Shown piece after piece: positions 18,374-35,967 of a stretch of 57,896 bases of DNA. The position numbers and the translations under genes are program-made. How positions within the stretch are numbered: the stretch's first letter is position 1; each line of letters opens with the position of its first letter. Under the pieces are notes generated by a model. It worked only from the letters and a program-made list of their open reading frames with translations, did not search any database and was not told where the DNA came from. The stretch lies in sequence record SRR31156797_7071, one strand, 5' to 3'.

Positions 18374-18541
18374 ATGAAATGGGTTGGCAGGAAGAGTGCT
18401 GAGAACTCTCGTTCTGAAGAGAATGAAATTGATACCCGTGCCGGGCTGGAGAACGTAACTGAAAGTATGGCCGATGATATATACAGACGGGTGGAATCAG
18501 CCGACCTTCCTGCCTATTTTTTTGAAGCTGTTTTGACCTAA
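18374..18541 (+). CDS. Small hypothetical protein (55 aa)
   Basis: GGAGG 5 nt before ATG 18374; fills an otherwise non-coding gap; its stop overlaps the stop of the convergent gene. Confidence 0.4.
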   Translation: MKWVGRKSAENSRSEENEIDTRAGLENVTESMADDIYRRVESADLPAYFFEAVLT

Positions 18542-19881
18542 TTATCTTTTTCCAGTCCGAGTCGCTTCATTTTGCGCCACAGGGAAACACGGTCAATGCC
18601 GAGTATTTTTGCTGCCTGAGTCTTATTCCCGTTTGTAGCCAGCATGACCTTTTCAATATGATCGCGTTCAACTTCTTCAAGGGTTCGCAGTGGTTTGCTG
18701 CGGTCAATATTGCGGATTTCTTCGGGTAATAAATCCGGGGAGAATACAGTGCCCCGGGCCAGAGCCAATGCCCGCTGGGAAATATTTTCAAGTTCACGGA
18801 CGTTGCCGGGAAAGGAGTAGTTCATCAGGATGTCCAGTGTTTCCTGTGAAATTGTGTCGATGGACTGGGTTTTAGTTCGGTGTTTTTCCAGAAAATGACC
18901 GATCAGAACCGGAATATCTTCACGGTGTTCACGAAGAGGCGGCGCAGAGAGGGTGACTACGTTCAAACGGTAGAACAGATCCTGTCTGAAGGTTCCTTGT
19001 TCTACTTCCTCTTTCAAATTACAGTTGGTTGCGGATACGACCCGGATATTAACCGGGATTTCCTGAGTTCCGCCAACCCGTAGAAAATTTCTCTCCTGCA
19101 ATACCCGCAGAAGTTTGACTTGCATGTTCAGGGGCAGCTCGCTCATTTCATCGAAAAAGACCGTGCCGCCGTTGGCTACTTCCAGTATCCCTTTTTGTCC
19201 GCGCTGTGCTCCGGTAAAGGCTTCTCTCTCGTGTCCGAAAAGTTCCTTATCCATGAGTTCGGCTGTGAATGTACCGCAGTTGATAGCCATGAACCGTTCC
19301 TGTGAACGGGGGCTTAGCATATGAATGCCGCGGGCGATGAGTTCCTTGCCTGTTCCTGTTTCACCTTGAATGAGGACGTTACAGTCCATGTGCGCTAATT
19401 GTTCAATGGTCTTTTTCAGTTTGAGAATCTGGTCGCTTTGTCCCACTAAGGGGAAGTCCTGTTTTCCTTCCTCGAGAACCTGCCGCAAGCGTAAAACTTC
19501 TACGGAGAGAGCCTGCCGTTCAAGGGCGCTGTGGACTTGTGCGCGCAGTTCATCCAGATTGAGCGGTTTAGCAATGTAAGAGTGTGCGCCTTTTTGCATG
19601 GCGACAACAGCAGTATCGACTGTGGCATGTCCGGTGATGACTATTACTTGTGTTGCAGGCTGGATTTCTTTGATGTGGTCAAGCAGTTCGATACCATTAA
19701 TGCCCGGAAGCATAAGGTCGGTCAGCACCAGCTCAAATTCCTGTTTTCCGATTTTTTGCAGGGCTTCAGTGCCAGAACCCACCGCTGTAACGGCGTGACC
19801 TTCTGCGCTCATGACATGGGTAAGGTTATCCCTTGCAATGGCTTCGTCTTCAACAATGAGGATATTGGCGTGATTGATCAT
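18538..19881 (-). CDS. NtrC-family sigma-54 response regulator (REC-AAA-Fis HTH)
   Basis: ILIVEDE, LTDLMLPG, GETGTGKE, EAFTGA, FRQDLFYRL, GNKTQAAKILGI. Confidence 0.95.
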   Translation of the reverse strand: MINHANILIVEDEAIARDNLTHVMSAEGHAVTAVGSGTEALQKIGKQEFELVLTDLMLPGINGIELLDHIKEIQPATQVIVITGHATVDTAVVAMQKGAHSYIAKPLNLDELRAQVHSALERQALSVEVLRLRQVLEEGKQDFPLVGQSDQILKLKKTIEQLAHMDCNVLIQGETGTGKELIARGIHMLSPRSQERFMAINCGTFTAELMDKELFGHEREAFTGAQRGQKGILEVANGGTVFFDEMSELPLNMQVKLLRVLQERNFLRVGGTQEIPVNIRVVSATNCNLKEEVEQGTFRQDLFYRLNVVTLSAPPLREHREDIPVLIGHFLEKHRTKTQSIDTISQETLDILMNYSFPGNVRELENISQRALALARGTVFSPDLLPEEIRNIDRSKPLRTLEEVERDHIEKVMLATNGNKTQAAKILGIDRVSLWRKMKRLGLEKDN

Positions 19882-21293
19882 CTCTTGTGTTCCTTGTCGA
19901 GCGGCAGGGTAATATAAAAGCTGGTACCATCTCCCGGGTTGCTTTCTGTTCTGATGCTGCCCTGATGCTTTTCTATTATTCCGTAGACGATGTACAGTCC
20001 CAACCCGGTTCCCTGCCCGATTTCTTTGGTGGAAAAGAAGGGATCAAAGATGCGGTCCATAATTTCCGGGGACATGCCTTGTCCTGTGTCGTTGACCCTG
20101 ATGACGGTACTTTCTTTGTCCATAAAAGCGGTGACATTTATTGAACCGGGTTTGTCTTCAATGGCCTGCACGGCATTAATGAGCAGGTTGATGAAAGCTT
20201 CCTGTATTTTGTGGCGGTCAGCATGAATGACAATGTGTTCAGGAATTCCCATGGAAAGGGTGATGTTCGGTGGAACCTGACTGGATACGAGATCCATGGC
20301 AGATTTTATGACCCCTCCGAGTTCAACCGGTCCCGGCGTAAATTCGCTCTCCCGTGAGAACTCCAGTAGTCCTTTGACAATGTCCCGCGCGCGCAGGGTC
20401 TCCTGCATAATGTTATGCATCATCCTGTCTGCCAGATTGTCTTTACCTTTTTGGTTTTCCTCGAGTATCTGGCAAGAGGTGGAGATGTTGTTCAGGGGGT
20501 TGTTCAGCTGGTGCGCAATCCCTGAAGAGAGTGTGCCGATGGATGAAAGTTTCTGGGCCTGCACCAGCTGGCGCCGACGTTTGAGCAGCTGTTCGACCAT
20601 GGAATTCAAGGCGGCAAAGACCTGCTGGATTTCATCATGTGAATTCTTAATCGGCAGGGGGCTGAATGTCCCTTCCGATATTCTGCGGGTAGCTTCTTGA
20701 ACTTCGCGTAGCGGTTTGAGGATATTGGAGTTGAAAAACAGTACAAGGGCCATAATAACCCCGGCAATGCCGATCATGGACAGGGCTAGGTTGGAGCGCA
20801 GGTCGCGGTTAATGCTGAGGATATATTTACGTTCGAAGTTGGAGATGGTTTTGGAGAGAGTCACTATGGCTTGCCCGGTTTCACGAAGCTGATAGTTTAA
20901 GTCTTTATTTGTGCCTAACGGCTCTTTTGGGAGAGTTTCAAGTTGTAGCAACAGTTCACGGTATTGATTCAGGTTTGTTTTCAGCTTCTTGCCGCTTTGT
21001 ATTTTCTCAAGTTTGCTGAATTCTCCCATCAGTTCCTGTAAGAGATTGTCAGCCCGTTTAAGGTAGTCAAGGCCAAGGGTAAATAAGGCTGGGTCATGAT
21101 ATAGAAGATAGTTTTTTTCAATGCGGCGGACTTCAAGAATTAGATTGCTAAGGTCATCGCTGCGTTCAATCAGCAGAACTTCGTCTTCAAGCTGCAGGGT
21201 ATTTACATAGGAAAGTAAACCCAGACAGCCGAAGCAGATTGAAAAAATGATGATTCCGATGATGATTTTCTGGCGGATATTCAGCTTGAACAC
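19878..21293 (-). CDS. Membrane sensor histidine kinase (periplasmic domain, HAMP)
   Basis: Two TM segments; HAMP; H-box IAHQLNNPL; NLLINA; DTGQG; FDPFFSTK; GTGLGL. Confidence 0.95.
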   Translation of the reverse strand: MFKLNIRQKIIIGIIIFSICFGCLGLLSYVNTLQLEDEVLLIERSDDLSNLILEVRRIEKNYLLYHDPALFTLGLDYLKRADNLLQELMGEFSKLEKIQSGKKLKTNLNQYRELLLQLETLPKEPLGTNKDLNYQLRETGQAIVTLSKTISNFERKYILSINRDLRSNLALSMIGIAGVIMALVLFFNSNILKPLREVQEATRRISEGTFSPLPIKNSHDEIQQVFAALNSMVEQLLKRRRQLVQAQKLSSIGTLSSGIAHQLNNPLNNISTSCQILEENQKGKDNLADRMMHNIMQETLRARDIVKGLLEFSRESEFTPGPVELGGVIKSAMDLVSSQVPPNITLSMGIPEHIVIHADRHKIQEAFINLLINAVQAIEDKPGSINVTAFMDKESTVIRVNDTGQGMSPEIMDRIFDPFFSTKEIGQGTGLGLYIVYGIIEKHQGSIRTESNPGDGTSFYITLPLDKEHKR

Positions 21294-21469: not shown

Positions 21470-22834
21470 CTAATTTTGTCCTGCCCAGACGCAGGCATTT
21501 GGTTCTTTGTCCTTGCTCCAAGGATACAGGCAGGTTCCCTCCTGCTCCCCGGGGATGGTAGTTGTATCGGAGAAATCGCAGCTCAAGCTTGAATTCTGGC
21601 TACAATACCATTTAACTCCTTGAAAATAGCTTTTAACAGGGTTTTTGGGTGTGGTGCGTCCCAGCTTGCCATTAGTCGGGTCGGTGAAAATAGTTGTTCC
21701 GTATACATAGGCTGCATTAGTATTGTCCGACATCCTGTTCTTCAACAGGTAGGATATAGCCACTTCGCCAGTTCTATCCTCGCCCGCGCTGCAATGGAAA
21801 TACAGAACGTAAGGTACATTGTTTTTTTTGTTCATTATTGCGCTGATTTTATCAACCAATTCTGGGAGTTTACTGGAACTACCTCCACCATTTCCTTCTG
21901 TCAGCATCTGCCACCAGAGGAATTTGCCGGTGGAATTGGTTCCGGCAAGCGGGACGCTGCCCTTGTTTGGTTGGTAGGTCTGTGATGGGATATTCGAAGA
22001 GGTCCCGTTGAAATGAATGTACTCCGCTTTAAGCATAGGACCTTCACCCGTGTCGTTAATCAGGCTGATATCAATAAATACGTAGGAGTCCGGCAAAGAT
22101 TTGCCTAGTTGTGCCATGGATCTTGATTTTAAGGCAGCCAACACACCTTTCTGGTCAAATACCCATTTATTGTTTTTCATTACAGTAGGATGTGGGCCTC
22201 TGAATAAAAAGTTACCGTTTTTATAGTCCAAAAGGTATGCATGTCCATAGCTGGCTATTGCCGGGTTGCCTTCAACGCAACCTGAGTTAATCATTACGTA
22301 GCCGGACTGGGTATCTTTTTGGCTCGGAGTGGATAAATGCGCACATCCTGTGCAATTTTCTGAAGTGGATCTTACGGAACAGTCTTGGGCGTAGTCCCAG
22401 CCTTTGTTTCCGCCGACAATTTTGATCATGCAGGTGTAGGGTGATCCGGGAAATGATTGGTTAAGGGTGTTTACCTTCCAGATCGTACCATTTTGCATAT
22501 GAATGAACTTAGGGCCTGTCTGCACAGAATAAGTGGGGCCGAAGGTTCTGTCCGCTTTCACCAGACTGAATGATGTCGTCATGTTGTCGTAAAAAGTTTT
22601 ATTAGCGACCTTTGATACTGTTTTGCAGTTTTGTGCAGGTGAGACAAAGAAATTTACACAGTCTGTTGAATTGCCGACGCATTTTCCCTCAATTGAGCTG
22701 GTGCTTTTTAAGGCAGGTGATATCTCTTCTACTGCTTGGGAAAAAGAGGGTCCTGCTGCCATGAGAATAAGGGCAATAAATAAGCAGATGCCTAATAATG
22801 AAGGTAAAGAACTTTTTACTTTCCCGGCGTGCAT
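21470..22834 (-). CDS. Secreted cysteine-dependent (CX5R, PTP/DSP-like) phosphatase with Cys-rich N-terminal domain
   Basis: Sec-type signal peptide ending near SQA; P-loop YFHCSAGEDRTG; many paired cysteines; GGAG RBS. Confidence 0.82.
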   Translation of the reverse strand: MHAGKVKSSLPSLLGICLFIALILMAAGPSFSQAVEEISPALKSTSSIEGKCVGNSTDCVNFFVSPAQNCKTVSKVANKTFYDNMTTSFSLVKADRTFGPTYSVQTGPKFIHMQNGTIWKVNTLNQSFPGSPYTCMIKIVGGNKGWDYAQDCSVRSTSENCTGCAHLSTPSQKDTQSGYVMINSGCVEGNPAIASYGHAYLLDYKNGNFLFRGPHPTVMKNNKWVFDQKGVLAALKSRSMAQLGKSLPDSYVFIDISLINDTGEGPMLKAEYIHFNGTSSNIPSQTYQPNKGSVPLAGTNSTGKFLWWQMLTEGNGGGSSSKLPELVDKISAIMNKKNNVPYVLYFHCSAGEDRTGEVAISYLLKNRMSDNTNAAYVYGTTIFTDPTNGKLGRTTPKNPVKSYFQGVKWYCSQNSSLSCDFSDTTTIPGEQEGTCLYPWSKDKEPNACVWAGQN

Positions 22835-22869
22835 AGAAACTCCTTATCCTTAAAACGTTTACTAAACTG

Positions 22870-22913
22870 AGAGTGGTTGATGAATGTTTTGTGCCGCATT
22901 CATCAACCACTCT
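22870..22913. terminator. 17-bp perfect inverted repeat between the two secreted-protein genes
   Basis: AGAGTGGTTGATGAATG-ttttgtgccg-CATTCATCAACCACTCT. Confidence 0.6.
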
Positions 22914-22921
22914 GTTTGGAG

Positions 22922-24868
22922 CTATTGGGTTTTATTTGGTGTTTTTACCTGTTTCGTATTCGCTGGAGTCTTCCCTGTCTGCTGGCAATATTGCGAATTG
23001 TTTTTCGTGCATACATCATAGGGGACGCCTTGTCCCTTGGGGACTGGTTTGCAGTAGTTAAGTTGGGCAGTGGTAGCCACTCCTGTCTTGGCATTTAGTT
23101 TTTTTACCTCTTCCGGCTGGCAACTGTAGTCGAAGTTATCCTTCATACAGGCGAGGAGTGTGGAGTAGGATCCGTTATTTGCATCCGGCCGGCATTTGTT
23201 GTCGGCGAAAGCCCATTTTTGCTGCTTGTACGGCTGCTGCTCAGGAGGACCGGGGCAGAGGGTCACTTTTATAGTTGCTCCTGCCTTTTGGCAGATAGCG
23301 GTAGAAGCGTCATCGTTGAACTGCCATGCATAGGCGTCCGAACCTACAGCCTTTAAGTATTTCACGTAGTTGGTATAAGGTTTGCCTTTACCATTTGAGA
23401 GGGAAACCATGTCATATACTCCGGGAGTACCGAGGGGACCGACCGCACATTGCGGGCCGCCGCAACCGGGAGTGAGACAGGTTTCCGGGTCCTTGTCGGC
23501 ACCCTTGGCTTTCATGACGTTACAGGCATACCAGTCTGAAATGTTGGGCGGGTCTGTGGTTATCCCGGCACTTGCTGCAGTTGTGTCGGTATTTTTGTAT
23601 GGATCCTGACCTCCGGGAGGTTCAAGCCATTGTTCAGGGGCCATGCAGCCTGCCCGTCCTCTACTCTTAACATTTGAAACCTCAAGGCCGATGCCGGCAT
23701 CAAGTTGTTTGTTCGTGTACAGGGGGGAGTTACCTGCGATGGTTGTCTGGTCTTCCTTGGGGCAGTCGTAGAGGTCTGCCACTGCGGACATTTCCGTGAA
23801 GTTACAATCGTTCCCGTTGTCTGTGATTTCCATGGACATGGGAACGTTGAACCCTGAAACCATACTCAGGTCAAAGTAGTCTGTCGCACCCATGCATGTG
23901 CCGTCTGAGGGGTTTACGGTACATTTATTACTGTCTTCTCCAGTGTATGTGCAGCCTGCTGAATATTCAAACACGGTTCCCACGCCTGAACTTGCATGTC
24001 CCGGCAAACCGCCGATCACACAATTACCGGGCCAGTCAACGCCGGACGGGGGTTGTTCGCAGCCAAGCAATACTCCGAAGTTGGCTGAGGCAATTCCGCC
24101 GTCAGGCACCGAGATATCCATGCTTTCACCAAAAGTGATTTTCTTGCGGAACAACAGGGCTGAGGTCCTGTTCTGGGGATTGGCATACATTTTATCCATT
24201 TCGGCCAGTTCTGCTGTCTTATTCCAGAGCTTGGCATTGTAGAAGTGCTGCTTATCTGCTGCAGTAGGGGGAGTGAGCACGATATAGGCGTCATCCATGC
24301 AGTTGTTATGAATGGTGATGCGTTTTTGCCAAGTGGTTGTTTCGGTGTTGTCGCCGCATTTGCCTCCCGATGGTGCCGGATTGGGAGGTGTATATTTGTT
24401 CATCTGGCACCCCGGACTGAGATTCGTTCCGGGGTCGGGGAAAAGCATGGCAGCCTCGCAACCGGGATTGAGCGAAGTCTTGTTGCATCCGTGTGCAAAC
24501 TTCCAGCCGGAGGGGGTTATTTCGATATAGGTGCTGAGCTTTTGGTTGAAGTGGTCATTTTCTATATCCACTTTCCAGACGCCATGCTTCATATATTTTG
24601 TGACTGCCCCTGCATTAGGATTTTTATTATCCACGGAAAACACTTTCTGGGTGGAATTGCCGTTCATAGCGGAATAGGTGACTGTGCTGATCCAGTTTTG
24701 TGTGCCGCATGGGCCAAGGGCCATGGTAATTCCCGTGCAACTGCTGTCCCCGGAGTCATCGCAAAGATACTGGTTGCTGTCGGCCCAAGCTGTATTAGCA
24801 ATGCAGCAAAGGATAAAAAAACAGGTGGTTATGATGATACTATTTGTTTTAGTCCCGTTATTTTTCAT
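22922..24868 (-). CDS. Secreted thaumatin-like (PR-5/GH152-like) protein with Cys-rich N- and C-terminal domains
   Basis: Signal peptide ending AWA|D (start probably ATG 24868). Thaumatin hallmarks: RITIHNNC, TVFEYS, DYFDLSMVSGFNVPMSM, YVKYLK...DAYAWQFNDD, IKVTLCP. Confidence 0.82.
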   Translation of the reverse strand: MKNNGTKTNSIIITTCFFILCCIANTAWADSNQYLCDDSGDSSCTGITMALGPCGTQNWISTVTYSAMNGNSTQKVFSVDNKNPNAGAVTKYMKHGVWKVDIENDHFNQKLSTYIEITPSGWKFAHGCNKTSLNPGCEAAMLFPDPGTNLSPGCQMNKYTPPNPAPSGGKCGDNTETTTWQKRITIHNNCMDDAYIVLTPPTAADKQHFYNAKLWNKTAELAEMDKMYANPQNRTSALLFRKKITFGESMDISVPDGGIASANFGVLLGCEQPPSGVDWPGNCVIGGLPGHASSGVGTVFEYSAGCTYTGEDSNKCTVNPSDGTCMGATDYFDLSMVSGFNVPMSMEITDNGNDCNFTEMSAVADLYDCPKEDQTTIAGNSPLYTNKQLDAGIGLEVSNVKSRGRAGCMAPEQWLEPPGGQDPYKNTDTTAASAGITTDPPNISDWYACNVMKAKGADKDPETCLTPGCGGPQCAVGPLGTPGVYDMVSLSNGKGKPYTNYVKYLKAVGSDAYAWQFNDDASTAICQKAGATIKVTLCPGPPEQQPYKQQKWAFADNKCRPDANNGSYSTLLACMKDNFDYSCQPEEVKKLNAKTGVATTAQLNYCKPVPKGQGVPYDVCTKNNSQYCQQTGKTPANTKQVKTPNKTQ

Positions 24869-25095: not shown

Positions 25096-25491
25096 GTGGC
25101 AGTGAATTGTATACGTGGACTTAAATTTTACTTTCTTGGTTCAATGCAGAAGCTCGGATTATTTGCTGTTATTTCGGTATGTTTAGCGGCAGGTCCGTGT
25201 TTGGCTCAATCCTCCGACACTTCATCCGGCAGTGCTGGGAATGTCAGCGAGCTACTTGCTCCTTTGCAGGCCTTGCATGACGACCTTGCCAGAATAGAGG
25301 CTAAGCTGGATGCCTTTGCCAACGCCAAGTGGGAATATAAGATTCTGGTCCCAAATGTTCTGGAGAAATCAGGATTTGACCCATATAAACCCAACCTCGC
25401 TCCATTGGGGAAACAGGGCTGGGAACTTGTCACCTATTCGCCTGATGTCGGGTATATCCTGAAACGTAGAGTTGCTCCTGTTTCTAAATAA
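25096..25491 (+). CDS. Small exported protein, coiled coil plus DUF4177-like motif
   Basis: Hydrophobic signal ending CLA|Q; heptad LQALHDDLARIEAKLD; KWEYKIL...LGKQGWELVT. Exact start uncertain (GTG 25102 has a GGAGG RBS). Confidence 0.65.
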   Translation: MAVNCIRGLKFYFLGSMQKLGLFAVISVCLAAGPCLAQSSDTSSGSAGNVSELLAPLQALHDDLARIEAKLDAFANAKWEYKILVPNVLEKSGFDPYKPNLAPLGKQGWELVTYSPDVGYILKRRVAPVSK

Positions 25492-25505
25492 ACCGGGGAG
25501 CGCAG

Positions 25506-25994
25506 ATGGATTTTCAGCCTCAAAAGAATCTTAAGCATAAACCTGTTCGAAACGGGTTTACACTGCTGGAACTCATTGTGGTCATGGTCATCATGTCCAT
25601 TGTCATGGCTGTTCTCCTGCCGCGTCTCAGTGAACAACTTTTGGGCAATTCTCTGCGTGCCGCTGTTTCCGATCTTGGGGCCATTGCAACTTCGGCTCGA
25701 TTCAGGGCTGCTGATACAGGCAAGCAGCATGTTTTGGTCATTAATCAGGAAACAAGAGACCTGAAGCTTTTAAGCGGAGACAAGGGGGAGATTCTGACCC
25801 TGACCTCACTGCCTGCAAAGGTGGTTGTGGAAGATATGGAACTTTTGGGGAAATCTGTTTCAGGCCATGAAATGCGTATTACCTTTTATCCTCGGGGAAC
25901 AGCTACTCCTGCCCGTCTCAAGCTGGTTTCCGAGAAGCAGGAAAGCCTGCAATTGATTGTCGCCGGAGCTGATGGGGGCGTGTATGTGCGCTAA
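25506..25994 (+). CDS. gspH: T2SS minor pseudopilin GspH/FimT-like
   Basis: Prepilin cleavage motif G|FTLLE; ITFYPRGTATP. Confidence 0.85.
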   Translation: MDFQPQKNLKHKPVRNGFTLLELIVVMVIMSIVMAVLLPRLSEQLLGNSLRAAVSDLGAIATSARFRAADTGKQHVLVINQETRDLKLLSGDKGEILTLTSLPAKVVVEDMELLGKSVSGHEMRITFYPRGTATPARLKLVSEKQESLQLIVAGADGGVYVR

Positions 25995-26400
25995 ATCCTG
26001 CGACTGCGGTTTTACCTTGCTGGAGGTCATGGTTGCCATGGCTATCCTGTCCATCGGGCTGGTCGCAGTGGCTGGTGTTTATTCACAGGCCACCGCTTCC
26101 CTGTCGCAGGTGGAGGGGTATGAACGGGCCGGCATGGAAGCTGAAATGCGGCTGGCCTCTTTTCTTAATCAGGGAAATATCAAACCGGGAACCACTTCCG
26201 GGAAATGCGAAACCCTGCCGCATGGAAGATGGAAGATCGTAAGCAAAAAAGAGAGTGATTATTCCGGTGTGAGTCGGATTAAGATTACGGTACTTTTTTT
26301 CACTGAAGGTAGGGAACATGAATATGTTCTGGAGACTGCACAGGTTGAACAGATCCTGCCTGCGCAAAGCAAAACCCAGACAAAGGATAAGAAAAAATGA
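25984..26400 (+). CDS. gspI: T2SS minor pseudopilin GspI
   Basis: G|FTLLEVMVAMAIL; size and position; probable start ATG 25984. Confidence 0.82.
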   Translation: MCAKSCDCGFTLLEVMVAMAILSIGLVAVAGVYSQATASLSQVEGYERAGMEAEMRLASFLNQGNIKPGTTSGKCETLPHGRWKIVSKKESDYSGVSRIKITVLFFTEGREHEYVLETAQVEQILPAQSKTQTKDKKK

Positions 26401-26879
26401 GACCAGCTCTACGTTTGCAAATGTGCTTTTCCCGAATCCTGCTCTTTATCCTTTTGGGTGGGATTCTGGTCGGGTGTCAGCTCAAGTCTGACCCTATTGA
26501 TATCGGTTACCAGCCCATGGCCCGGCCTCTGATCGGACTTAAACTGAAGGTTGTCCAGAAGGAGATGCACGTTATCGAAGAGGAAGGGAAGGAGGAGTCC
26601 AACGAGGATCAGGATCGTGCCCTGCTGGTAATGGATTGTAAATCGGGTAGTCCGGCTCAAAAAAGTGGTGTTCTGCCCGGAGATATTCTTTTGGAAATTG
26701 ATGGTGTCCCGGTGCAGGGGATGCGGGATTCAACCTTCATCATGCAACGCAAGCGTCCGGGCGATAATGTTGCTTTGACCCTTTTCAGAAACGGTAAGGT
26801 TGTAAAATTGGGAATCTATCTGCCTATTGACGTCCCGGTCACCAAGGCGGTCAACACTACAAGCGGGGAGGCTTCTTGA
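26397..26879 (+). CDS. PDZ-domain lipoprotein embedded in the T2SS operon
   Basis: Lipobox LVG|C; SGSPAQKSGVLPGDILLEIDG...RPGDNVALTLFRNG PDZ signature; overlaps both neighbouring genes. Confidence 0.8.
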   Translation: MRPALRLQMCFSRILLFILLGGILVGCQLKSDPIDIGYQPMARPLIGLKLKVVQKEMHVIEEEGKEESNEDQDRALLVMDCKSGSPAQKSGVLPGDILLEIDGVPVQGMRDSTFIMQRKRPGDNVALTLFRNGKVVKLGIYLPIDVPVTKAVNTTSGEAS

Positions 26880-27304
26880 TGCATAAAGGAAGACGCGGTT
26901 TCACACTTATTGAGATGCTGGTGGTTATCGTGATTATCGGCGTGCTTGCAGCCATTGTGGCCCCAAGATTTTTCGGTAAAACCGACGAAGCCAAGGTTGC
27001 GGCGGCCAAAGCACAGATTGAGGATTTTTCCATGGCCTTGCAAAGCTATCAGTTGGACACAGGGGATTTTCCCACTACTCAGCAGGGCCTCAATGCATTG
27101 GTGGTGAAACCCACCACGCCGCCGGTTCCGGAGAACTGGCATGGTCCGTACATGAGCAAGAACACCATTCCAAAGGATCCGTGGAATAATCCGTACGTGT
27201 ACACCGCTCCCGGTAAGCACAGCCCGGATTTTGACCTGCTCAGTTACGGCAAGGACGGTAAGCCCGGAGGAACAGGTGATAACGCGGACATCACCAACTA
27301 CTGA
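26879..27304 (+). CDS. gspG: T2SS major pseudopilin GspG
   Basis: G|FTLIEMLVVIVIIGVLAAIVAPR; YQLDTGDFPTTQQGL; WHGPY; KDPWNNPYVY; SYGKDG. Confidence 0.96.
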   Translation: MHKGRRGFTLIEMLVVIVIIGVLAAIVAPRFFGKTDEAKVAAAKAQIEDFSMALQSYQLDTGDFPTTQQGLNALVVKPTTPPVPENWHGPYMSKNTIPKDPWNNPYVYTAPGKHSPDFDLLSYGKDGKPGGTGDNADITNY

Positions 27305-27863
27305 TCAAGGAGGTTTCACTCTTCTGGAATTGCTGGTGGCGATTACAATTGGATCGGTCGTTCTGACAGCGGTTTATTCGATTTTCGTCACAGCCACACG
27401 GGTGGAAAGGGGGGCACAGGCGGTACTCTCACCCATGCGGTCAGCTTCCTACGTCTTTAGCATGCTCGGCAGGGATGTCCACAATCTTGACCCGCTGTGC
27501 TCGGCTGCGGATATCAGTTGTAAGGATACTAAATGTCAGTTCCCCATTTTGGACGAAAAGGGAAAACGGATTTGGGTGCGTTATGTTCTGAAGGATAGCA
27601 TTCTTTGGAGGGAGCAGCGCAAGGATAAAAAGGGGAAGCCGGAAAAAGGAAAACCCATCGCAAAGATGGAACTTTGTTCCGGGGTGGTTAAAACCCGTTT
27701 CAAGCTCACTGGCAGGGGGCATGGCGGAGGGGGGAGTGCAGGGACCATTGCCGGTCCGGGAATGATCGGATTGGTTCTGGATTTTAAGGAAGGAGTTTCG
27801 CGACGGAGTGTTTTTCGGTCCCAGATTTTATTGGAAGTAACACCGCAGCAGAAGGCAGGCTGA
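27276..27863 (+). CDS. gspJ: T2SS minor pseudopilin GspJ
   Basis: G|FTLLELLVAITI. Probable start GTG 27276, with GGAGG at 27266-27270 inside the gspG 3' end. Confidence 0.8.
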   Translation: MITRTSPTTDQGGFTLLELLVAITIGSVVLTAVYSIFVTATRVERGAQAVLSPMRSASYVFSMLGRDVHNLDPLCSAADISCKDTKCQFPILDEKGKRIWVRYVLKDSILWREQRKDKKGKPEKGKPIAKMELCSGVVKTRFKLTGRGHGGGGSAGTIAGPGMIGLVLDFKEGVSRRSVFRSQILLEVTPQQKAG

Positions 27864-27867
27864 AAGG

Positions 27868-28890
27868 ATGCTTAAGAATGTGACCAGCCAAACGCAGGTT
27901 TTGGGTCAACAGGGATTTGCCCTGGTGATAACGCTGTGGGTCATGGCCATTCTGGGGATCATGGCGGCTTCGTTCTCTTATGAGGCTGTATGCGAAACAA
28001 AAGTGGAAAGCTGGAGCAGTCAGGATCGTCGGGCGTACAATCTGGCGCGTGGCGGTGTTCACAGGGCGGCAGGTATTATCAGAGAACATGCCCGCGACCC
28101 CGTACACAGCATTACAGATAAGTGGTTTTCCGGGAATGAATTTTACAAGGATATCAAGTTCGGTCCGGGATATTATTCCATTGTCCGTCCTGATTCGGGA
28201 GATATTAAAAAAGATAAAACAGGTAAGGACTCAAAGAAAAGCAAGAGAACGGAGTTATTGCAGTATGGCCTTACTGATGAGGAATCGCGTCTGAACATCA
28301 ATATTGCCACCATGTCCCAGTTGCAGGGGTTCCCTAATGTATCCAATGTGCTGGCTTCGAATATCATCCTTTATCGGACCAAGAAACGGGGCAAGAAGAG
28401 CAAAGAAGTTCCTCCGTCAGTGGCAATGGCTAAGGGGGTGGTCGACGGGCCGATTCGTAGTCTGGACGAATTGCTGCAAGTGAAGGGAATGACTCGTGAT
28501 ATACTGTATGGCCCTTCAGGCAGTGATAGCGGGATTGCCTATCATCTGACCTGTTTCTCCTCAGGCAAGGTGAACATCAATACTGCCGGGAAAGAAGTGC
28601 TCCATGCCGTAGGATTTACTACCGGACAGGTTCAGAGCTTGCTTGCTTACCGTCTTTCCGGCTGGAAGGGATTTGCGTCGGTGGATGCCGCTCTCAGCTC
28701 CTTGGCGGTGGCTTCGCAGAGTTCACATGTGGAACCGTTTTTAACCGTGCAGTCTAAAAATTTCAGCATGACCTGTCTGGCCGGGTTTGTTCCGGGCAAG
28801 CATGTTGAGCGTATTACAGCCAGGGTCAGTGTAGATAAGGACCAATTACGTTTTACCCGCTGGGAATCCAAATCCCTGCCGCGAATATGA
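27868..28890 (+). CDS. gspK: T2SS minor pseudopilin GspK
   Basis: G|FALVITLW (no E5); DEESRLNIN; SLDELLQVKGM; GKVNINTA. Confidence 0.9.
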   Translation: MLKNVTSQTQVLGQQGFALVITLWVMAILGIMAASFSYEAVCETKVESWSSQDRRAYNLARGGVHRAAGIIREHARDPVHSITDKWFSGNEFYKDIKFGPGYYSIVRPDSGDIKKDKTGKDSKKSKRTELLQYGLTDEESRLNINIATMSQLQGFPNVSNVLASNIILYRTKKRGKKSKEVPPSVAMAKGVVDGPIRSLDELLQVKGMTRDILYGPSGSDSGIAYHLTCFSSGKVNINTAGKEVLHAVGFTTGQVQSLLAYRLSGWKGFASVDAALSSLAVASQSSHVEPFLTVQSKNFSMTCLAGFVPGKHVERITARVSVDKDQLRFTRWESKSLPRI

Positions 28891-28903
28891 ACGGGGTTGT
28901 TCT

Positions 28904-30250
28904 ATGAATTTAAAGAAGTTGTGCAAAAGAATTCCTCTCCCCTGTCCCTTGGGGAAGAAATCCCGGACAGCCTTGGTGTTTGACGTGCAGGGCAGTTGCG
29001 CAGCTTCGCTTGAATATTCTCCCAAGGAAAAACAGTGGCGTCCCTTATCGCAATTACCCGCAAAGGAGAATCCTCGTTCCTGCACCATGGTGCTTCCATC
29101 GGCCATGCTTGCTTTGTGCCGTACTCCTAATCCAGCCAAGGAGCCAAAGGATGCAGTAGCAACTCTGGAGGCTGAAGCTGGTCAGCGTTTGTTCCGTTCT
29201 CTTGAGACTGGGGGCAGAGAGATCCGCAGTTACAACGGTGAAAAAGGGTTGAACGCAACTCTCGGTTGGATTTCCAACGAGTATCTTCATGAATGCCTGG
29301 AAACAGCAAAGAATATAGGGTTTCAAGTCACAGCCATTGTTGTACCTGAATTAGATCTGAAGGTTTCCGGACCTACTCTGCTCGTGTCCCGCGAAAACGG
29401 GAAAACCCGTTTATGCTGCATTTACAAGAATGTTCCCGTGATTTGGGAGGTGGTGCCGGATGAGGGACCATCTTTGGAAAGTGCACTGGGTGTGGTTCTC
29501 GCGGAGCTTGAGGCAGAAGAAAAGCCGAGGCCGGAAAAGGTGGTTCTTTGGATTTCTCCCGGCGGGTCCGGGGAACTGGATGCTATTACAGAGGTGATTG
29601 AAAAAGGGCTGCCCGGGATTCCGGTGGAGAATGTCCGTTCCCATGAAGATTTTTTGCCTCTGCTGCGTATGAGCCGCTTAAAAGGTTCATTTTATGAAAG
29701 TCTTGAAGAGTGGGAGCGCATTCCCCTTGCACCTAGAGATTATTTGCGTCCGGGGCTGGCGCTTGCGGGAGCTATTGCAGGTTGCCTGTTGCTTTTCTTT
29801 TCCGTGATCCATTTGAACACTCAGGATGCTAAGGTTCTTAAACAGGAAGCGCACAAGATTTTGTTTCTGGCTAAACGTACGGATCTGGTGACAATGGAGA
29901 TTAGGGAATATGTCCGCCGTAATAGAGATATTCTTAAATACACAGTGAAGAAACCCTTTGTTTCTCATGTGTTCCGTGATCTTGGGGATTCGGTTCCGGC
30001 TCAAGTTAAATTGGATAACATGCGGCTTGATCAATCCGGTAAGATTACTCTGCAAGGGGAGGCGAAAAGTGAAATCAGTCTGATGGCCTTGCTGGAGAAT
30101 TTGAGCAGCACAGAGATTTTTTCCAATGCCGTACTCGCTTCCATGAGCAAGCTGGATCATGGTCAGGGATTCCGTTTTGTGGTGGAGCTTGATTTTCCGG
30201 CTTGGCAAAGTTTTTTCAAACCCAAGAAGAAGCAGGGGGAAACGCAATGA
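28904..30250 (+). CDS. gspL: T2SS GspL/PilN-like assembly platform protein
   Basis: Large cytoplasmic N-domain, single TM, C-terminal PilN-like ferredoxin fold (VPAQVKLDNM..ITLQGEA..LENL..FSNA); follows gspK. Confidence 0.72.
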   Translation: MNLKKLCKRIPLPCPLGKKSRTALVFDVQGSCAASLEYSPKEKQWRPLSQLPAKENPRSCTMVLPSAMLALCRTPNPAKEPKDAVATLEAEAGQRLFRSLETGGREIRSYNGEKGLNATLGWISNEYLHECLETAKNIGFQVTAIVVPELDLKVSGPTLLVSRENGKTRLCCIYKNVPVIWEVVPDEGPSLESALGVVLAELEAEEKPRPEKVVLWISPGGSGELDAITEVIEKGLPGIPVENVRSHEDFLPLLRMSRLKGSFYESLEEWERIPLAPRDYLRPGLALAGAIAGCLLLFFSVIHLNTQDAKVLKQEAHKILFLAKRTDLVTMEIREYVRRNRDILKYTVKKPFVSHVFRDLGDSVPAQVKLDNMRLDQSGKITLQGEAKSEISLMALLENLSSTEIFSNAVLASMSKLDHGQGFRFVVELDFPAWQSFFKPKKKQGETQ

Positions 30251-31794
30251 ATGCTCTGCTTGCATCTTGGAACAAACTCGATCCGCGTGACCGCCGTGCT
30301 TTAGGTCTATGCGTTGTCTTCTTGGTTTCCGTGGTGCTTTACATGGGCATTCTGGCTCCTCTTGGAAACATGTATGAAGCCACGGTTCAGGAGCAGGTAG
30401 ATTTGAAACAGGAAATCCAGCTCAACACGCCTAAAGCTATGGTTTTACCTGACCGTGAAGCAAAATTGCGTCAGGTTAAGGGGGAATATGGATCTCTCAA
30501 ACGCCAGTTGGATCTAGTGGACCGCAGGGATTGGAGTGCTTCGGATATTTATAATGAAATCCGGGATTATGCGTCTATCACCGGGGTTGTTATCAAAGAA
30601 ATGCGCCCGTTGTCGCAAAAACCGAATGGTTTTTTGAGCAGTCAGCCCATGGATGTTACCTTTAGCGGTTCTTTTACAGCCATTGAGAAATTTATTTATT
30701 ATTTGGAGACCTCTCCTCAGGTTTTTGTTGTTTCGGAAATCTCATTGACGGGCAAGAGTGGTACCATGCATGGCGGTTTGGTGGTCAGTAAATATTCTAT
30801 TCCTGCCAAAGCTGACTCCAGGATGCCGGAACATGCAGTTAGTCTTGTGCTCTCCATGCCGCCATGGATCGGATATGCTCCTTTTGAAATCGCCCGTCAC
30901 AAGGGGTGGCTCCATGCAAACGGGACGCGCATCGAGTGCTATTTTTCAGAGCATGAAAAAACTAATTTTGAAAAATTATATGCCGGAGAAATTGACGGTA
31001 CTGCCACTCACGCTCTGGAACTTGTCCAGCTGCTGACCAGAGGAGTGGACCTGCGCATAGTGGCTCCCTTAGCGCAATTCAAGGCCGGGGATGCTCTGAT
31101 GGTGGCCGGGAATTCAGCTATCAAATCCGTGAAAAATCTGCGCGGGAAAACCGTTTTTCTGGAAACAGGCGGAACAGCCCATTATTTTCTGTATGAAGTT
31201 CTAAAAAAGAACGGCATGTCGCTCTCGGATGTTACAGTGAGTGATATGTCTCGTGACATCGTGGCTCAAAGCTTGAGAGCGGGACTTATTGAGGCGGGGG
31301 TCACCTTTGAGCCGTATGTGGGGCGATTGCAGAGGCAGCGCATCGCCAGATTGGTGGCAGGTCCGGAGGATGTGGATAATTGGAGTCTCCAGTTTTTGGT
31401 CCTGCGTGAAGATGCTTTGCCCGGCAATGGAAAAGCGGTTGAAGCCCTCATAAGCGGTTTTGCGCGTGCAGTGCACTGGTGGCGAAATAACCCTGATGAG
31501 GCCGTGCAGTTTCTGAGTGCCAACAACCCGCAAGGGGTTTCGCAGGAGACCATCAAGAAGGTTATGAAGAGTGTCCGGTTTCTTACTCCTGAAAAGGCGC
31601 GGGCTTATTTCTGCACCGAGCCGGAAGTGGACAACTCCATGGATGAGTATTTCAGGAAATATGAGAATTTTTTTAAGCAGGAGCTCGGATATAAAGTGGT
31701 TGTTCCCAAGGCAGATGTCCTTGACTGGCGATATGCCCGCAAGGTGTACAATTGCACCGCGCATGCAAACTCCACGAACGGAGTAGGGGACTGA
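30247..31794 (+). CDS. GspM/PilO domain fused to an SsuA/TauA/NMT1-like periplasmic solute-binding domain
   Basis: N-terminal WNKLDPRDRRAL, TM, coiled coil and PilO-like PMDVTFSGSF..FIYYLE; C-terminal WIGYAPFEIA, IKSVKNLRGKTV, AGLIEAGVTFEPY. Start ATG 30247 overlaps the gspL stop. Confidence 0.82.
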   Translation: MNALLASWNKLDPRDRRALGLCVVFLVSVVLYMGILAPLGNMYEATVQEQVDLKQEIQLNTPKAMVLPDREAKLRQVKGEYGSLKRQLDLVDRRDWSASDIYNEIRDYASITGVVIKEMRPLSQKPNGFLSSQPMDVTFSGSFTAIEKFIYYLETSPQVFVVSEISLTGKSGTMHGGLVVSKYSIPAKADSRMPEHAVSLVLSMPPWIGYAPFEIARHKGWLHANGTRIECYFSEHEKTNFEKLYAGEIDGTATHALELVQLLTRGVDLRIVAPLAQFKAGDALMVAGNSAIKSVKNLRGKTVFLETGGTAHYFLYEVLKKNGMSLSDVTVSDMSRDIVAQSLRAGLIEAGVTFEPYVGRLQRQRIARLVAGPEDVDNWSLQFLVLREDALPGNGKAVEALISGFARAVHWWRNNPDEAVQFLSANNPQGVSQETIKKVMKSVRFLTPEKARAYFCTEPEVDNSMDEYFRKYENFFKQELGYKVVVPKADVLDWRYARKVYNCTAHANSTNGVGD

Positions 31795-31797
31795 GCC

Positions 31798-32676
31798 ATG
31801 GGCATGGAAAAATATTTACATAAAACTGTGGCGGACGCTTTTTCCCGGTTGGCATTAATTGTCGCGGCTCTGACTTTGCTCGGCGCGCTGGTGATTCTTG
31901 CCCTGCCCGAGCCGCAGCCCAGAGCGGTGAATTATGTGGATGCCACGCGCGATCTCCCTCCGCCTAATCCGCTGACTTATCCCTATTATTCTTTTTTTAC
32001 CACCAAGCGTCGCCATATATTTAAGTACGGGCAGCTTAATCTGGTCCATCGCTCCTACAAACGCACGGCCCCGGCTCTGCCTCCCGGACCGGATGTATCC
32101 GGTCTCTCACTTATGGCGACTATGCCGGGTGCACGCAAGTCCTATGCAATCATCAGTGGAATTAATGGAGGGGCAAGTACTCTGGTTACCCTTGGGCAGA
32201 TGGTCAGGGAGAGCATACTTGTGGAAATTGCTTCCAATCATGTGACTTTGGCCCGAAATGATCAGAATGTCACACTGCCAATGAATACGGCCTGGGATGC
32301 GCAGGCTGATAGTCTGCTGAGTGAGTCCGGGATTACTAAGAGAGCCGGGACTTCCTATGCGCTTGCAGTACCTTCCGATGCTGATGTCAAAGGCGGCAAA
32401 GTAAGTATTAAGGGGTTGGGGGTGAACCTCAGTCCGCTGACTGAAATTGAGCGCAAAGATATGGGAATCCCCTCAGGGCGTGGGCTGAAAGTGGCCCGCG
32501 TGGTGCACAAGGATACCGGGCTGCTGCGGGGGGATTTGCTTCTGGCTGTGTCCGGCAGGCCCGTTGGCTCAATAGCGCAGGTCAGCGAGATATTAAAAAG
32601 TAAAATTGGCAAGGACGTGTTTCTGACAATTATTCGTAACGGAAAACCCATGAATGTGAACATGACGGTTCCCTGA
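31798..32676 (+). CDS. gspC: T2SS GspC-like protein (TM, HR domain, PDZ)
   Basis: One TM; LSLMAT...YAII...LVEIASNHVTL HR-like domain; C-terminal PDZ (GLLRGDLLLAVSG, IIRNGK); lies before gspD. Confidence 0.7.
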   Translation: MGMEKYLHKTVADAFSRLALIVAALTLLGALVILALPEPQPRAVNYVDATRDLPPPNPLTYPYYSFFTTKRRHIFKYGQLNLVHRSYKRTAPALPPGPDVSGLSLMATMPGARKSYAIISGINGGASTLVTLGQMVRESILVEIASNHVTLARNDQNVTLPMNTAWDAQADSLLSESGITKRAGTSYALAVPSDADVKGGKVSIKGLGVNLSPLTEIERKDMGIPSGRGLKVARVVHKDTGLLRGDLLLAVSGRPVGSIAQVSEILKSKIGKDVFLTIIRNGKPMNVNMTVP

Positions 32677-32731
32677 TTTTCAGGAAGAGCGAATAGGCTC
32701 ACATTTAGGAAAATATAAGACGAGAGAGTTC

Positions 32732-34336
32732 ATGATGAGACTTGCCCACTGCATACGATTGTTTGTCATTCTGGTAATGTGCTGCTCCGTTCCCTTAACA
32801 GGGGGCGTGGTAGGAACGGCCCATGCTGTGCCAAAAGGAAAAAATCTTATCGAAATAAACTTCCGGCAGACGGACATTATGGCTGTGCTGGAATTCTACT
32901 CGCATCTCATGGGCAAGACATTTATTCCGAATCCTGAACTCAAAGGTCCGGTGACGGTTATTTCACCGAAACCGGTGACTAGATTTGAAGCCCTTCGTTT
33001 GTTGTATTCCGTACTTGATATGAAAGGCTACACCCTAGTGCAGCAGAGCGGTTATTATAAGATAGTTTCTAAAAGTATGGCTGTGCATGAAGGGCTGAAT
33101 GTTGATTCCATCACTGTCGGTGGTGATCAGATGGTTACGGAAGTTATTATGCTCAAGTATCTGAAAGCAGCTGACGTGATAGCTGACTTTCGGCAGATTC
33201 TTTCTCCTGAAGGGTCTATTTTTTCAGGAAAGTCTAATAATTACATTGTGTTTACGGATACTGCCGCCAATGTGAACAAGATTAAGGAGTTGATCAGCCA
33301 CATAGATAAGCCCGGCTCACTGCCGTCCTCCAAGACTTATTCCCTACAGTACATTGAGGCCAAGACCGTGGCCCCGATGCTGACCAAGCTCTATACGGAA
33401 AAGGTGGGCAAAACTAATCAGGCTACTATTCAGATTCTTGCCATGGAGGAAACCAATTCCCTGATCGTGCTGGCCCCGGAAACCGTGCATGCGGACATTG
33501 CCAAAATCATATCTAAGCTTGATGTTCGCACCATGCAGGTCTCCATTAAGGCCTATCTTGTGGAGGTAACTCTGACAGATGAAACCAAGCTTGGTTTTGA
33601 GTGGATGTTCTCTACTAATGCGGACGGCACAGATCTTAAAGGTGCTTTGGATTTCGGCCATATATTCGATCCCAGCGGAATAACCAATGCAGCGCAGGAA
33701 GCCCTTAAATTTTCCATTATCAACTCTGATAATTTTAAGATGATGATGAACTTCTTTGCCTCGGACGATAGTTCGAGAGTGGTTTCTGCGCCGCATATTG
33801 TGGCTTTGGATAACCAGAAGGCTAGCATTGCCGTGGGGACTGAGATTCCCATTCTTAAATTGACTCAGACTTCTGTGACTTCCCAGCAGAATGTGATCAA
33901 GACATATGACCACCGTAAATTCGGCATGCAGTTGAATATTACCCCCACCATTGCGGAAAATCGTGATGTGACTCTCAAGATTGATCAGACCCTGTCGAGT
34001 CTGGTCACCGACGAGACTGACCCGGACAAGTGGCAGTCCACGGACCGTGCGGCTTCAACAACTGTGCTGGTCAAGGATGCCCAGACCCTTGTTATCGGTG
34101 GCCTTATGACTGTTAATAGTGGGCTGAACAAGAAAGGTGCTCCCTATTTGCGTGACATGCCCGTACTCGGGCCCTTGTTCGGTACTCAGGATGACTCTAT
34201 GACTAAGTCGGAGCTCTTGTTATTTCTGACTCCATACGTAATCGCCACACCGGATGAAGCTGATAATATGAGCGGACTGCGCAAGGCTCAGAGTCCCATG
34301 ACTGTGGACGAATTCGGCTTGATTTTCGATCTTTAG
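32732..34336 (+). CDS. gspD: T2SS secretin GspD
   Basis: INFRQTDI N0 domain; N-domain repeats; LD..QVSIKAYLVEV; APHIVALDNQKASIAVG; LVIGGL; ELLLFLTPYVI. Confidence 0.95.
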   Translation: MMRLAHCIRLFVILVMCCSVPLTGGVVGTAHAVPKGKNLIEINFRQTDIMAVLEFYSHLMGKTFIPNPELKGPVTVISPKPVTRFEALRLLYSVLDMKGYTLVQQSGYYKIVSKSMAVHEGLNVDSITVGGDQMVTEVIMLKYLKAADVIADFRQILSPEGSIFSGKSNNYIVFTDTAANVNKIKELISHIDKPGSLPSSKTYSLQYIEAKTVAPMLTKLYTEKVGKTNQATIQILAMEETNSLIVLAPETVHADIAKIISKLDVRTMQVSIKAYLVEVTLTDETKLGFEWMFSTNADGTDLKGALDFGHIFDPSGITNAAQEALKFSIINSDNFKMMMNFFASDDSSRVVSAPHIVALDNQKASIAVGTEIPILKLTQTSVTSQQNVIKTYDHRKFGMQLNITPTIAENRDVTLKIDQTLSSLVTDETDPDKWQSTDRAASTTVLVKDAQTLVIGGLMTVNSGLNKKGAPYLRDMPVLGPLFGTQDDSMTKSELLLFLTPYVIATPDEADNMSGLRKAQSPMTVDEFGLIFDL

Positions 34337-34350
34337 CCCCGGAAAGCACC

Positions 34351-35943: not shown

Positions 35944-35967
35944 GCAAATTTGGCAACTGGAGCACCC

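Follow-up and report, generated by a model that had tools for sequence, protein, structure and literature searches.

Why should two exported proteins with unrelated catalytic domains, encoded side by side, begin with the same cysteine-rich region, and what might that region do for both of them? The question is raised by two neighbouring genes in sequence record SRR31156797_7071, a 57,896-nt stretch of DNA that we call the window. One gene encodes an exported phosphatase-like protein (P0001) and the other an exported thaumatin-like protein (P0002), and they lie next to a type II secretion system (T2SS) locus. The proteins of this locus are 78-99% identical to counterparts in records titled Maridesulfovibrio sp., and the source of the two exported proteins is a marine sulfate-reducing bacterium. 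A first-pass annotation of the window had held that the regions just after the two signal peptides are related and form a domain that it did not recognise. Both points hold: judged by comparison of sequence profiles, P0001 aa 47-189 and P0002 aa 36-157 are homologous, and the domain that they define is a new, very small and uncatalogued family, carried here, as had also been noted, by two otherwise unrelated exported proteins beside a T2SS. Among the explanations of its function weighed below, the one we tentatively favour, by analogy with carbohydrate-binding modules (CBMs), is that the domain serves as a ligand- or surface-binding targeting module common to both proteins. The two genes and the parts of their products are as follows.

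21470..22834, minus strand: P0001, exported phosphatase-like protein of 454 aa with 14 cysteines (open reading frame and translation; nine homologues of identical architecture)
22733..22834, minus strand: putative Sec-type signal peptide of P0001, aa 1-34, ending in SQA (from reading the sequence)
22268..22696, minus strand: shared N-terminal domain, phosphatase copy, aa 47-189, eight cysteines (hhalign, AlphaFold model)
21473..22267, minus strand: dual-specificity/PTP-type phosphatase domain of P0001 with cysteine-rich C-terminal tail, aa 190-454 (Pfam DSPc, PDB profile)
21767..21796, minus strand: active-site P-loop of P0001, HCSAGEDRTG (C-x5-R), aa 347-356 (conservation across homologues)
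22922..24868, minus strand: P0002, exported thaumatin-like protein of 648 aa with 31 cysteines (open reading frame; 22 homologues)
24782..24868, minus strand: putative Sec-type signal peptide of P0002, aa 1-29, ending in AWA (from reading the sequence)
24398..24763, minus strand: shared N-terminal domain, thaumatin copy, aa 36-157, six cysteines (profile and hidden Markov model cross-matches)
24335..24397, minus strand: proline-rich flexible linker of P0002, aa 158-178 (low model confidence)
22925..24334, minus strand: enlarged thaumatin-like domain of P0002 with C-terminal extension, aa 179-648 (Pfam, Foldseek)

Both genes are on the minus strand with a gap of 87 nt between P0002 and P0001, and the start of P0002, an ATG at 24868, agrees with its 648-aa orthologues. 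The signal peptide of P0001, read by eye, has a basic n-region, a hydrophobic core and a small-x-small site; that region of P0002 appears in the full-length model as a helix (10-23) with a low predicted local distance difference test score (pLDDT).

Taken alone, the two sequences make a weak case for homology; together with their relatives they make a decisive one at the level of sequence. Pairwise BLASTP of P0001 against P0002 recovers the alignment drawn by hand in the first-pass annotation, weakly (E 0.34, 21/86 identical), and the two domain copies in the window are about 21% identical. Against shuffled controls the Smith-Waterman score of the N-terminal regions, 57, was equalled by 5/2000 and 3/2000 shuffles (mean 33.1, sd 5.8). 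The relatives comprise nine homologues of P0001 and 22 of P0002, from which the N-terminal regions were excised. With hhalign, 10 phosphatase-side segments align to 17 thaumatin-side segments with Prob 99.05 and E 2.2e-18 over 118 columns. When P0019, P0022 and P0023, thaumatin-side proteins of intermediate appearance, are left out, E is still 1e-14, and six close phosphatase sequences alone give E 5.9e-13; the best of 20 column-shuffled controls reached E 0.058 and the reversed profile 0.34. Cross-searches with hidden Markov models (HMMs), scored at a nominal database size of Z = 1e6, agree: the phosphatase-side HMM matches 13/13 domain-bearing thaumatin-like proteins and 0/10 of the other rows, and the thaumatin-side HMM matches 9/10 phosphatase rows, missing P0011. 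The relationship first seen by eye is thus borne out by profile-profile comparison, by HMM cross-matches and by the structural models described next, and the positions given for it were right, both in the cysteine spacings and in the outer cysteines, which lie at 22681/22277 in P0001 (C52, C186) and at 24763/24407 in P0002 (C36, C154).

For modelling, and for the profile search reported below, we used A3, a combined alignment of 19 domain sequences. AlphaFold2 on A3 predicts the phosphatase N-terminal domain as an all-beta fold of nine strands (pLDDT 92.1, predicted TM-score 0.86), that is, with the beta-sandwich fold of a CBM-type module. The full-length model of P0002 has a pLDDT of 84.1, with about 85 for its N-terminal domain, whose strands run at 44-49, 61-69, 72-80, 89-94, 96-104, 109-118 and 121-124; they are followed by a short helix and then by a linker whose pLDDT falls below 50 at aa 162-168. 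Compared by strand order, the two models agree, and both domains are predicted to be the same all-beta sandwich. The six cysteines that the first-pass annotation ascribed to the domain describe the thaumatin copy, which has six; the phosphatase copy has eight and the core of the family four. Among 48 distinct copies these four (P0001 numbering) are C70 at 83%, C152 at 96%, C161 at 96% and C186 at 92%. The first pair, C52 and C59, occurs in only 27-33% of copies, and C135 and C164 covary, with both present in 23 copies, a single one in 1 and neither in 24. Covariation in the sequences leads us to predict the pairings C152-C161, C70-C186, C135-C164 and C52-C59. Of the other positions, W146 is invariant, W119 is conserved at 90% and A149 at 85%, so that the family signature reads W-K/R-V...G-W-x-[YF]-A-x-x-C-x(6-9)-C...G-C, with the four core cysteines.

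No Pfam or NCBIfam model matches the domain. The N-terminal regions of P0001 and P0002 gave no match at E <=1, and when 19 members were scanned singly against Pfam at E <=10 the matches fell in eight families, each with one member only and with a best E of 0.021. The Slr4-type S-layer C-terminal domain (PF19526) was absent from the matches of that sequence-profile scan. Structural comparison with VIA-align and Foldseek returns neighbours at Z 4.8-6.2, among them the SpaC pilus adhesin, DdCAD-1, VHL and a thaumatin-like xylanase inhibitor, with the Legionella T2SS substrate NttC, C2 domains and transthyretin as further weak neighbours; because this Z range is background by the tool's own calibration, we retain from them only the term beta-sandwich. 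A look-up of the domain in the ESM Atlas gave no usable match. We also considered an internal repeat of the thaumatin fold and dropped it, as the domain HMM gives only negative-score matches inside the thaumatin part. Finally, among the papers listed on type II secretion, Desulfovibrio and thaumatin, none joined Desulfovibrio with thaumatin and no title dealt with this locus.

What lies behind the domain differs entirely between its two carriers. P0001 matches Pfam DSPc at E 7.6e-5 with 23 bits, under the 33.5-bit cut-off, and its profile finds DUSP10, viral PTP-2 and Ci-VSP in the PDB at E 1e-4 to 1e-2, the DUSP10 and viral PTP-2 matches having E about 1e-4 over some 60 residues; LSF2 is among the weak matches (E 0.17). 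In the active site, H347, C348, G351, D353, R354, T355 and G356 are invariant in 10/10 sequences, and the H-C-x5-R-[ST] P-loop motif of the PTPs is present in 24/27 family proteins, the remaining three being truncated fragments. P0002 scores 27.6 bits against Pfam PF00314, with a cut-off of 27.4, and two thaumatin signature stretches align to zeamatin. Foldseek matches its thaumatin part to thaumatin, osmotin and other thaumatin-like proteins (about 27 entries, E 4e-7, target TM 0.60-0.70), and the domain is much enlarged, with about 370 alignment columns against targets of about 205 residues. Thaumatin-like proteins are known as binders of beta-1,3-glucan. One site in this part of P0002 deserves mention in its own right. 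The position of aa 338 (approximately 23855-23857; column 659 of alignment A2) is an aspartate in zeamatin and a grape thaumatin-like protein (IDGFN/VDGFN), which we take to belong to the acidic cleft of these proteins; it is serine, asparagine or alanine in 13/13 domain-bearing homologues and aspartate in 6/8 domain-less ones.

How widely is the domain used? The A3 profile, run exhaustively against 1,835,955,588 representative proteins at E <=1e-3, matched 22: 15 of the phosphatase family, four of the thaumatin-like family (one a fragment with two domain copies) and three Big_13 repeat proteins, which we do not count as members because they match only profile positions of about 39-95. With just two partner families among the 22 matches, one of them fixed and the other optional, the polymorphic effector of conserved N-terminus and variable C-terminus envisaged in the first-pass annotation is not supported. 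A shared N-terminal domain with differing C-terminal domains does recall polymorphic toxin and effector families, which differ in having many C-terminal toxin types and immunity genes.

The two families use the domain in different ways. The phosphatases always have it. Searching in the reverse direction, with only the catalytic part of P0001 (aa 195-454), returned 21 proteins, and the domain is present in 27/27 phosphatase-family proteins examined, ending some 160-175 residues before the P-loop (HC-x2-G-x-DRTG) whatever precedes it, be this a signal peptide or a lipobox-like start with pentapeptide repeats. The latter arrangement is that of the metagenome members of about 620-700 aa (P0011, P0036, P0041, P0045, P0046 and P0050-P0054; loci L025-L034), in which the shared domain is preceded by a lipobox-like start, some 150 aa of unknown kind and then pentapeptide repeats. 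Among 23 aligned thaumatin-like proteins, two of them N-terminally incomplete rows, 13 have the domain, P0002 included, and four of these 13 have it in tandem (P0015-P0017, P0022); eight full-length homologues (P0026-P0033) begin directly with the thaumatin domain. The linker position holds a stretch of about 50 aa rich in Pro, Thr and Lys in P0021 and the second domain copy in P0015-P0017. The thaumatin-like homologues thus have zero, one or two copies, optional, repeated and joined by linkers in the modular manner of a CBM. In a maximum-likelihood tree of 48 copies the domains group mainly by carrier family, not by genome, so that their sharing is old and does not stem from recent recombination between adjacent genes. 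One clade (support 100/100) is made up of the Maridesulfovibrio-type thaumatin copies, with P0019 and P0023 below it; both P0022 copies are placed with the phosphatases, on long branches.

Gene neighbourhoods tie both carriers to one secretion system, which in the window has the following position.

25096..37194, plus strand: T2SS locus, transcribed divergently from P0002 (Pfam; synteny in L001, L002, L004, L005 and L006)
37251..38093, plus strand: DsbA-like thiol:disulfide oxidoreductase at the end of the T2SS locus (Pfam Thioredoxin_4, DSBA)

The locus comprises 12 genes, with the DsbA-like gene last (25096-38093). Its first half runs from a small exported protein through two pseudopilins, a PDZ lipoprotein, GspG and a further pseudopilin to GspK, and its second half through GspL/PilN, GspM fused to an NMT1/SBP domain, GspC-PDZ, GspD, GspE and GspF. 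Two parts are unusual, the PDZ lipoprotein among the pseudopilin genes (26397-26879, plus) and the fusion of GspM to a periplasmic NMT1/SBP-type domain (30202-31794, plus), and both are retained in the distant versions of the system in genomes G007 and G157. The first gene of the pseudopilin block (25096-25491, plus) encodes the small exported protein, of 131 aa, which stands at the same place in the T2SS of G007 and G157 (40-41% identity; L041 13140-13499, L043 11235-11591); it has no Pfam match, and NCBIfam gives only an Sp36 match below threshold.

Among 12 genome loci with a thaumatin-like gene, L001, L002 and L004-L006, all in records titled Maridesulfovibrio sp., have the domain-bearing gene, divergent, beside this same T2SS. 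In L003 (G006) the domain-bearing gene has no T2SS gene within 10 kb, and in L007-L012 the thaumatin-like protein is domain-less and the locus shows no T2SS gene. The phosphatase gene adjoins the thaumatin-like gene in the window, G002, G003, G239, G348 and G395; it lies between gspF and dsbA in G004 and G005, with a matching position in G234, comes straight after gspF in G006, whose T2SS proteins are 37-76% identical to those of the window, and is 1.6 Mb away in G237. It was not found in G001, G198 and G303, which have a domain-bearing thaumatin-like protein. In G003 it runs on the other strand from its thaumatin-like neighbour, split between two overlapping frames of 140 and 365 aa (L004 12125-13584, minus), which may be a frameshift or an assembly error.

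A 401-genome sample of the order (Desulfovibrionales) contains 13 genomes with the domain. All 12 genomes with the close type of GspM-SBP fusion carry it; the exception among the 13 is G082, a fragmented assembly, and a full-length fusion occurs in only 14/401 genomes. Because these genomes are close kin, the co-occurrence stands for few evolutionary events, not 12. Nor does the mere presence of a T2SS discriminate, since each of G007-G010 and G082 has GspG somewhere. More telling are G157 and G007, both of which carry a distant form of this T2SS (27-28% identity for the full-length GspM-SBP, with PDZ lipoprotein, GspC-PDZ and the small first gene) and in which neither the domain nor the phosphatase was found. 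G157 has a thaumatin-like gene on the same strand as gspE, 135 nt upstream of it, whose product gives no match to the domain HMM even at E 10. The genes preceding gspE in G007 encode exported phosphatidylserine-decarboxylase-like and S10-peptidase-like proteins, cargo candidates with nothing in common with each other or with the domain. The domain was found in 0/4 genomes with a domain-less thaumatin-like gene, and the phosphatase domain in 0/5, in a search that had no positive control among these five. Conversely, two distant domain-bearing phosphatases, in L026 (metagenome, 16 kb) and L039 (G082, 14 kb), have no T2SS gene within 9-10 kb. Thus the thaumatin-like protein is linked to a T2SS with or without the domain, the phosphatase is never without the domain, T2SS in view or not, and the PDZ parts of the T2SS are not specific to domain-bearing cargo.

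Of the functions that the first-pass annotation had offered for the domain, the anatomy described above favours target binding, although binding itself, and the nature of any ligand, are things that we infer. An independent fold, a proline-rich tether, tandem copies and optional presence together make a binding module our leading reading, at somewhat less than even odds, for to be optional, duplicated and linker-joined is the habit of binding modules in secreted glycan-active enzymes. The modules of glycoside hydrolases (CBM and X modules) likewise vary in copy number, have Pro/Thr-rich linkers and are shared across families; the present domain differs from them in belonging to no CAZy or Pfam family and in having only two carrier families in the data searched. 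The glucan phosphatases laforin, SEX4 and LSF2 also join a carbohydrate-binding module to a DSP (dual-specificity phosphatase) domain, and P0001 resembles them in combining a beta-sandwich module with a C-x5-R dual-specificity phosphatase, while differing in being exported and disulfide-rich and in lacking a CBM20 or CBM48 match; their architecture suggests, by analogy, a way in which a phosphatase could be directed to a polymer by its binding module. In this picture the domain is an extracytoplasmic beta-sandwich module of about 125-140 residues, with two predicted family-wide disulfides and optional extras, and the obligatory N-terminal companion of a small family of exported or lipoprotein DSP-type phosphatases. 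In Maridesulfovibrio-like Desulfovibrionales the thaumatin-like protein of the same T2SS locus has also recruited it, presumably by donation from the phosphatase gene to its neighbour, and carries it on a flexible proline-rich linker, sometimes twice; such a donation fits the finding that domain-bearing thaumatin-like proteins are confined to genomes of the lineage in which the domain-bearing phosphatase occurs. Both proteins would pass by Sec to the periplasm, be oxidised there by the DsbA of the locus, whose presence fits a disulfide-rich cargo, and leave through the adjacent T2SS, a route that we infer. The domain would then direct both a C-x5-R phosphatase activity and a glucan-binding or lytic activity of thaumatin type to one target outside the cell, a substrate or surface such as a (phospho)glycan or a cell envelope.

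Several observations weigh against this tentative reading. No CBM, lectin or other Pfam family matches the shared domain in sequence; in the scan of 19 members at E <=10, CBM20 and CBM48 were not matched, and PA-IIL (0.066) and Laminin_G_3 (0.078) appear as isolated matches of single members. Structure offers no firmer footing: Foldseek of the N-terminal domain against the PDB found nothing at E <=1e-3 (best, the VHL beta-domain, TM 0.40), and among 48,161 chains compared with VIA-align the best Z was 6.2; 14 chains scored Z >=5, and no chain reached Z >=8. Conserved as they are, W119, W146 and A149 may belong to the core of the fold instead of forming a binding site, and the fixed position of the domain in the phosphatases would suit an integral structural role just as well. 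The tight linkage to one type of T2SS, with a close full-length GspM-SBP fusion (51-90% identity) in 12/13 domain-bearing genomes, fits a role in secretion too. Binding and secretion are not mutually exclusive.

A secretion tag was another function proposed in the first-pass annotation. Here the beta-sandwich would hold the signal by which this T2SS selects two dedicated cargo proteins in the periplasm, with GspC-PDZ, the PDZ lipoprotein, the secretin or the pseudopilus tip as candidate receptors. Linkage speaks for it: the two carriers are the sole non-machinery genes regularly at the locus, the thaumatin-like gene is about 5.4 kb from gspM in 12 genomes, both arrangements of the phosphatase gene, beside the thaumatin-like gene and after gspF, are at the T2SS, and domain and close system coincide in the genome sample, if with counts drawn from close relatives. 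There is precedent as well. The Ig-fold of Vibrio cholerae VesB is reported to be graftable and recognised via the EpsC PDZ domain (PMC12369372), and the loops of the Fn3 domain of Pel3 are reported to be one element of a composite T2SS signal (PMC7949064). The premise, also in the first-pass annotation, that T2SS substrates lack a portable signal is partly outdated by these beta-sandwich precedents. VesB resembles the present case in being a T2SS-linked exoprotein with a small beta-sandwich accessory domain, and GspC has a PDZ domain here too; it differs in that its domain is C-terminal, that no sequence relation was seen, and that here a homologous T2SS has domain-less cargo. PelI and Pel3 of Dickeya and Pectobacterium likewise have an N-terminal beta-sandwich by the catalytic domain, with loops that aid secretion, and are unlike our proteins in that the signal is composite over both domains and Fn3 is a known family (PMC7949064), whereas the present domain matches none.

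The comparative evidence lowers our estimate of the tag all the same, so that we think it unlikely, with more room left for it in the phosphatase. The homologous T2SS of G157, with the same PDZ lipoprotein, GspM-SBP and GspC-PDZ, has an in-line thaumatin-like gene without the domain, which speaks against the domain being necessary for secretion of the thaumatin-like cargo, as far as gene content can show; G007 has the same type of T2SS with upstream exported proteins that share no domain; and the domain is obligatory in phosphatases whose loci (L026, L039) show no T2SS gene. Domain-less T2SS-linked cargo, a phosphatase domain without T2SS and PDZ parts that are not specific to the domain all count here, and tandem duplication and a long flexible linker would be unexpected in a secretion signal. 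The two copies in one genome are, besides, only about 21% identical and cluster by carrier family. Co-folding of the phosphatase N-terminal domain with aa 195-292 of GspC, its PDZ domain, and with aa 28-160 of the PDZ lipoprotein scored 0.00, uninformative either way, as alignments were not used and the partner fold was uncertain in one run. We regard as similarly improbable the specific version in which the domain is a natural transferable cargo tag of one T2SS, copied from the phosphatase, its fold read by one PDZ protein. Somewhat less likely again is that the domain belongs to the structure or regulation of the phosphatase itself, as a folding scaffold, substrate-channel wall or autoinhibitory pro-domain, and is a mere passenger in the thaumatin-like protein, gained by local duplication and with little function of its own. 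The fixed position, the presence in every phosphatase and the lack of a linker to the catalytic domain are what this would predict, and at least eight thaumatin-like homologues function without the domain; against it, the domain is predicted to fold alone (pLDDT 92), and in the thaumatin lineage it keeps its cysteines and tryptophans across proteins about 50% identical and is also duplicated, a retention and duplication that argue for selection. That the two N-terminal domains pair, the proteins being secreted or acting as one complex, we consider very improbable: the genes are adjacent in six loci and the domain is common to exactly these two proteins, but G001, G198 and G303 have the thaumatin-like carrier with no phosphatase match, and the loci of the marine lipoprotein-type phosphatases show no thaumatin-like partner gene. 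A binding module therefore keeps the largest share of our belief, and what these four readings leave over goes to something else or to a mixture.

Some features around the two genes may bear on their expression.

22870..22913, minus strand: perfect 17-bp hairpin in the 87-nt intergenic spacer (RNA fold)
18538..21293, minus strand: histidine kinase and sigma-54-dependent response regulator, downstream of the P0001 gene (Pfam)

The fold of 22835-22930 (minus) has an energy of -31.5 kcal/mol (z -5.8), with 0/200 shuffles equally stable, and no clear U-tract follows the hairpin, which could set the ratio of the two gene products as a partial terminator or an mRNA-stability element. A sigma-54-dependent activator adjoins the phosphatase gene in the window (18538-19881), in L026 (7498-8859) and in L039 (3176-5434), the latter two being 38-40% identical to the window's regulator; this sequence conservation hints that sigma-54 control of the phosphatase gene is conserved. 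A promoter scan (TGGCAC-N5-TTGC, <=2 mismatches) gave 56 matches against 67 expected and none in the relevant spacers. Beyond the DsbA gene lie a PP2C-type phosphatase gene and a GT4 glycosyltransferase gene (38128-38943, minus), with no evident tie to the domain.

The choice of substrates by the T2SS is a long-standing question, and only recently have beta-sandwich accessory domains been shown to carry information for it (PMC12369372). In this context the locus amounts to a natural experiment: one T2SS, two unrelated cysteine-rich cargo candidates, one domain, and relatives with zero, one or two copies of it. Were the domain a cargo tag after all, these would be the first two non-homologous T2SS substrates with a homologous, genetically portable recognition domain, the T2SS signal would be definable in sequence, and the thaumatin-like protein would have become a better or differently handled substrate. 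The present interest is limited by the narrow distribution of the domain and by a function proposed from analogy. Whatever its role proves to be, the domain can be defined as a clean new family, with about 20 clusters, four core cysteines and the motif W...GW-x-[YF]-A-x-x-C. To our knowledge bacterial thaumatin-like proteins and secreted DSP-type phosphatases are almost unstudied, and if the domain is a binding module, as we tentatively favour, it would suggest that a protein of each kind has the same target outside the cell.

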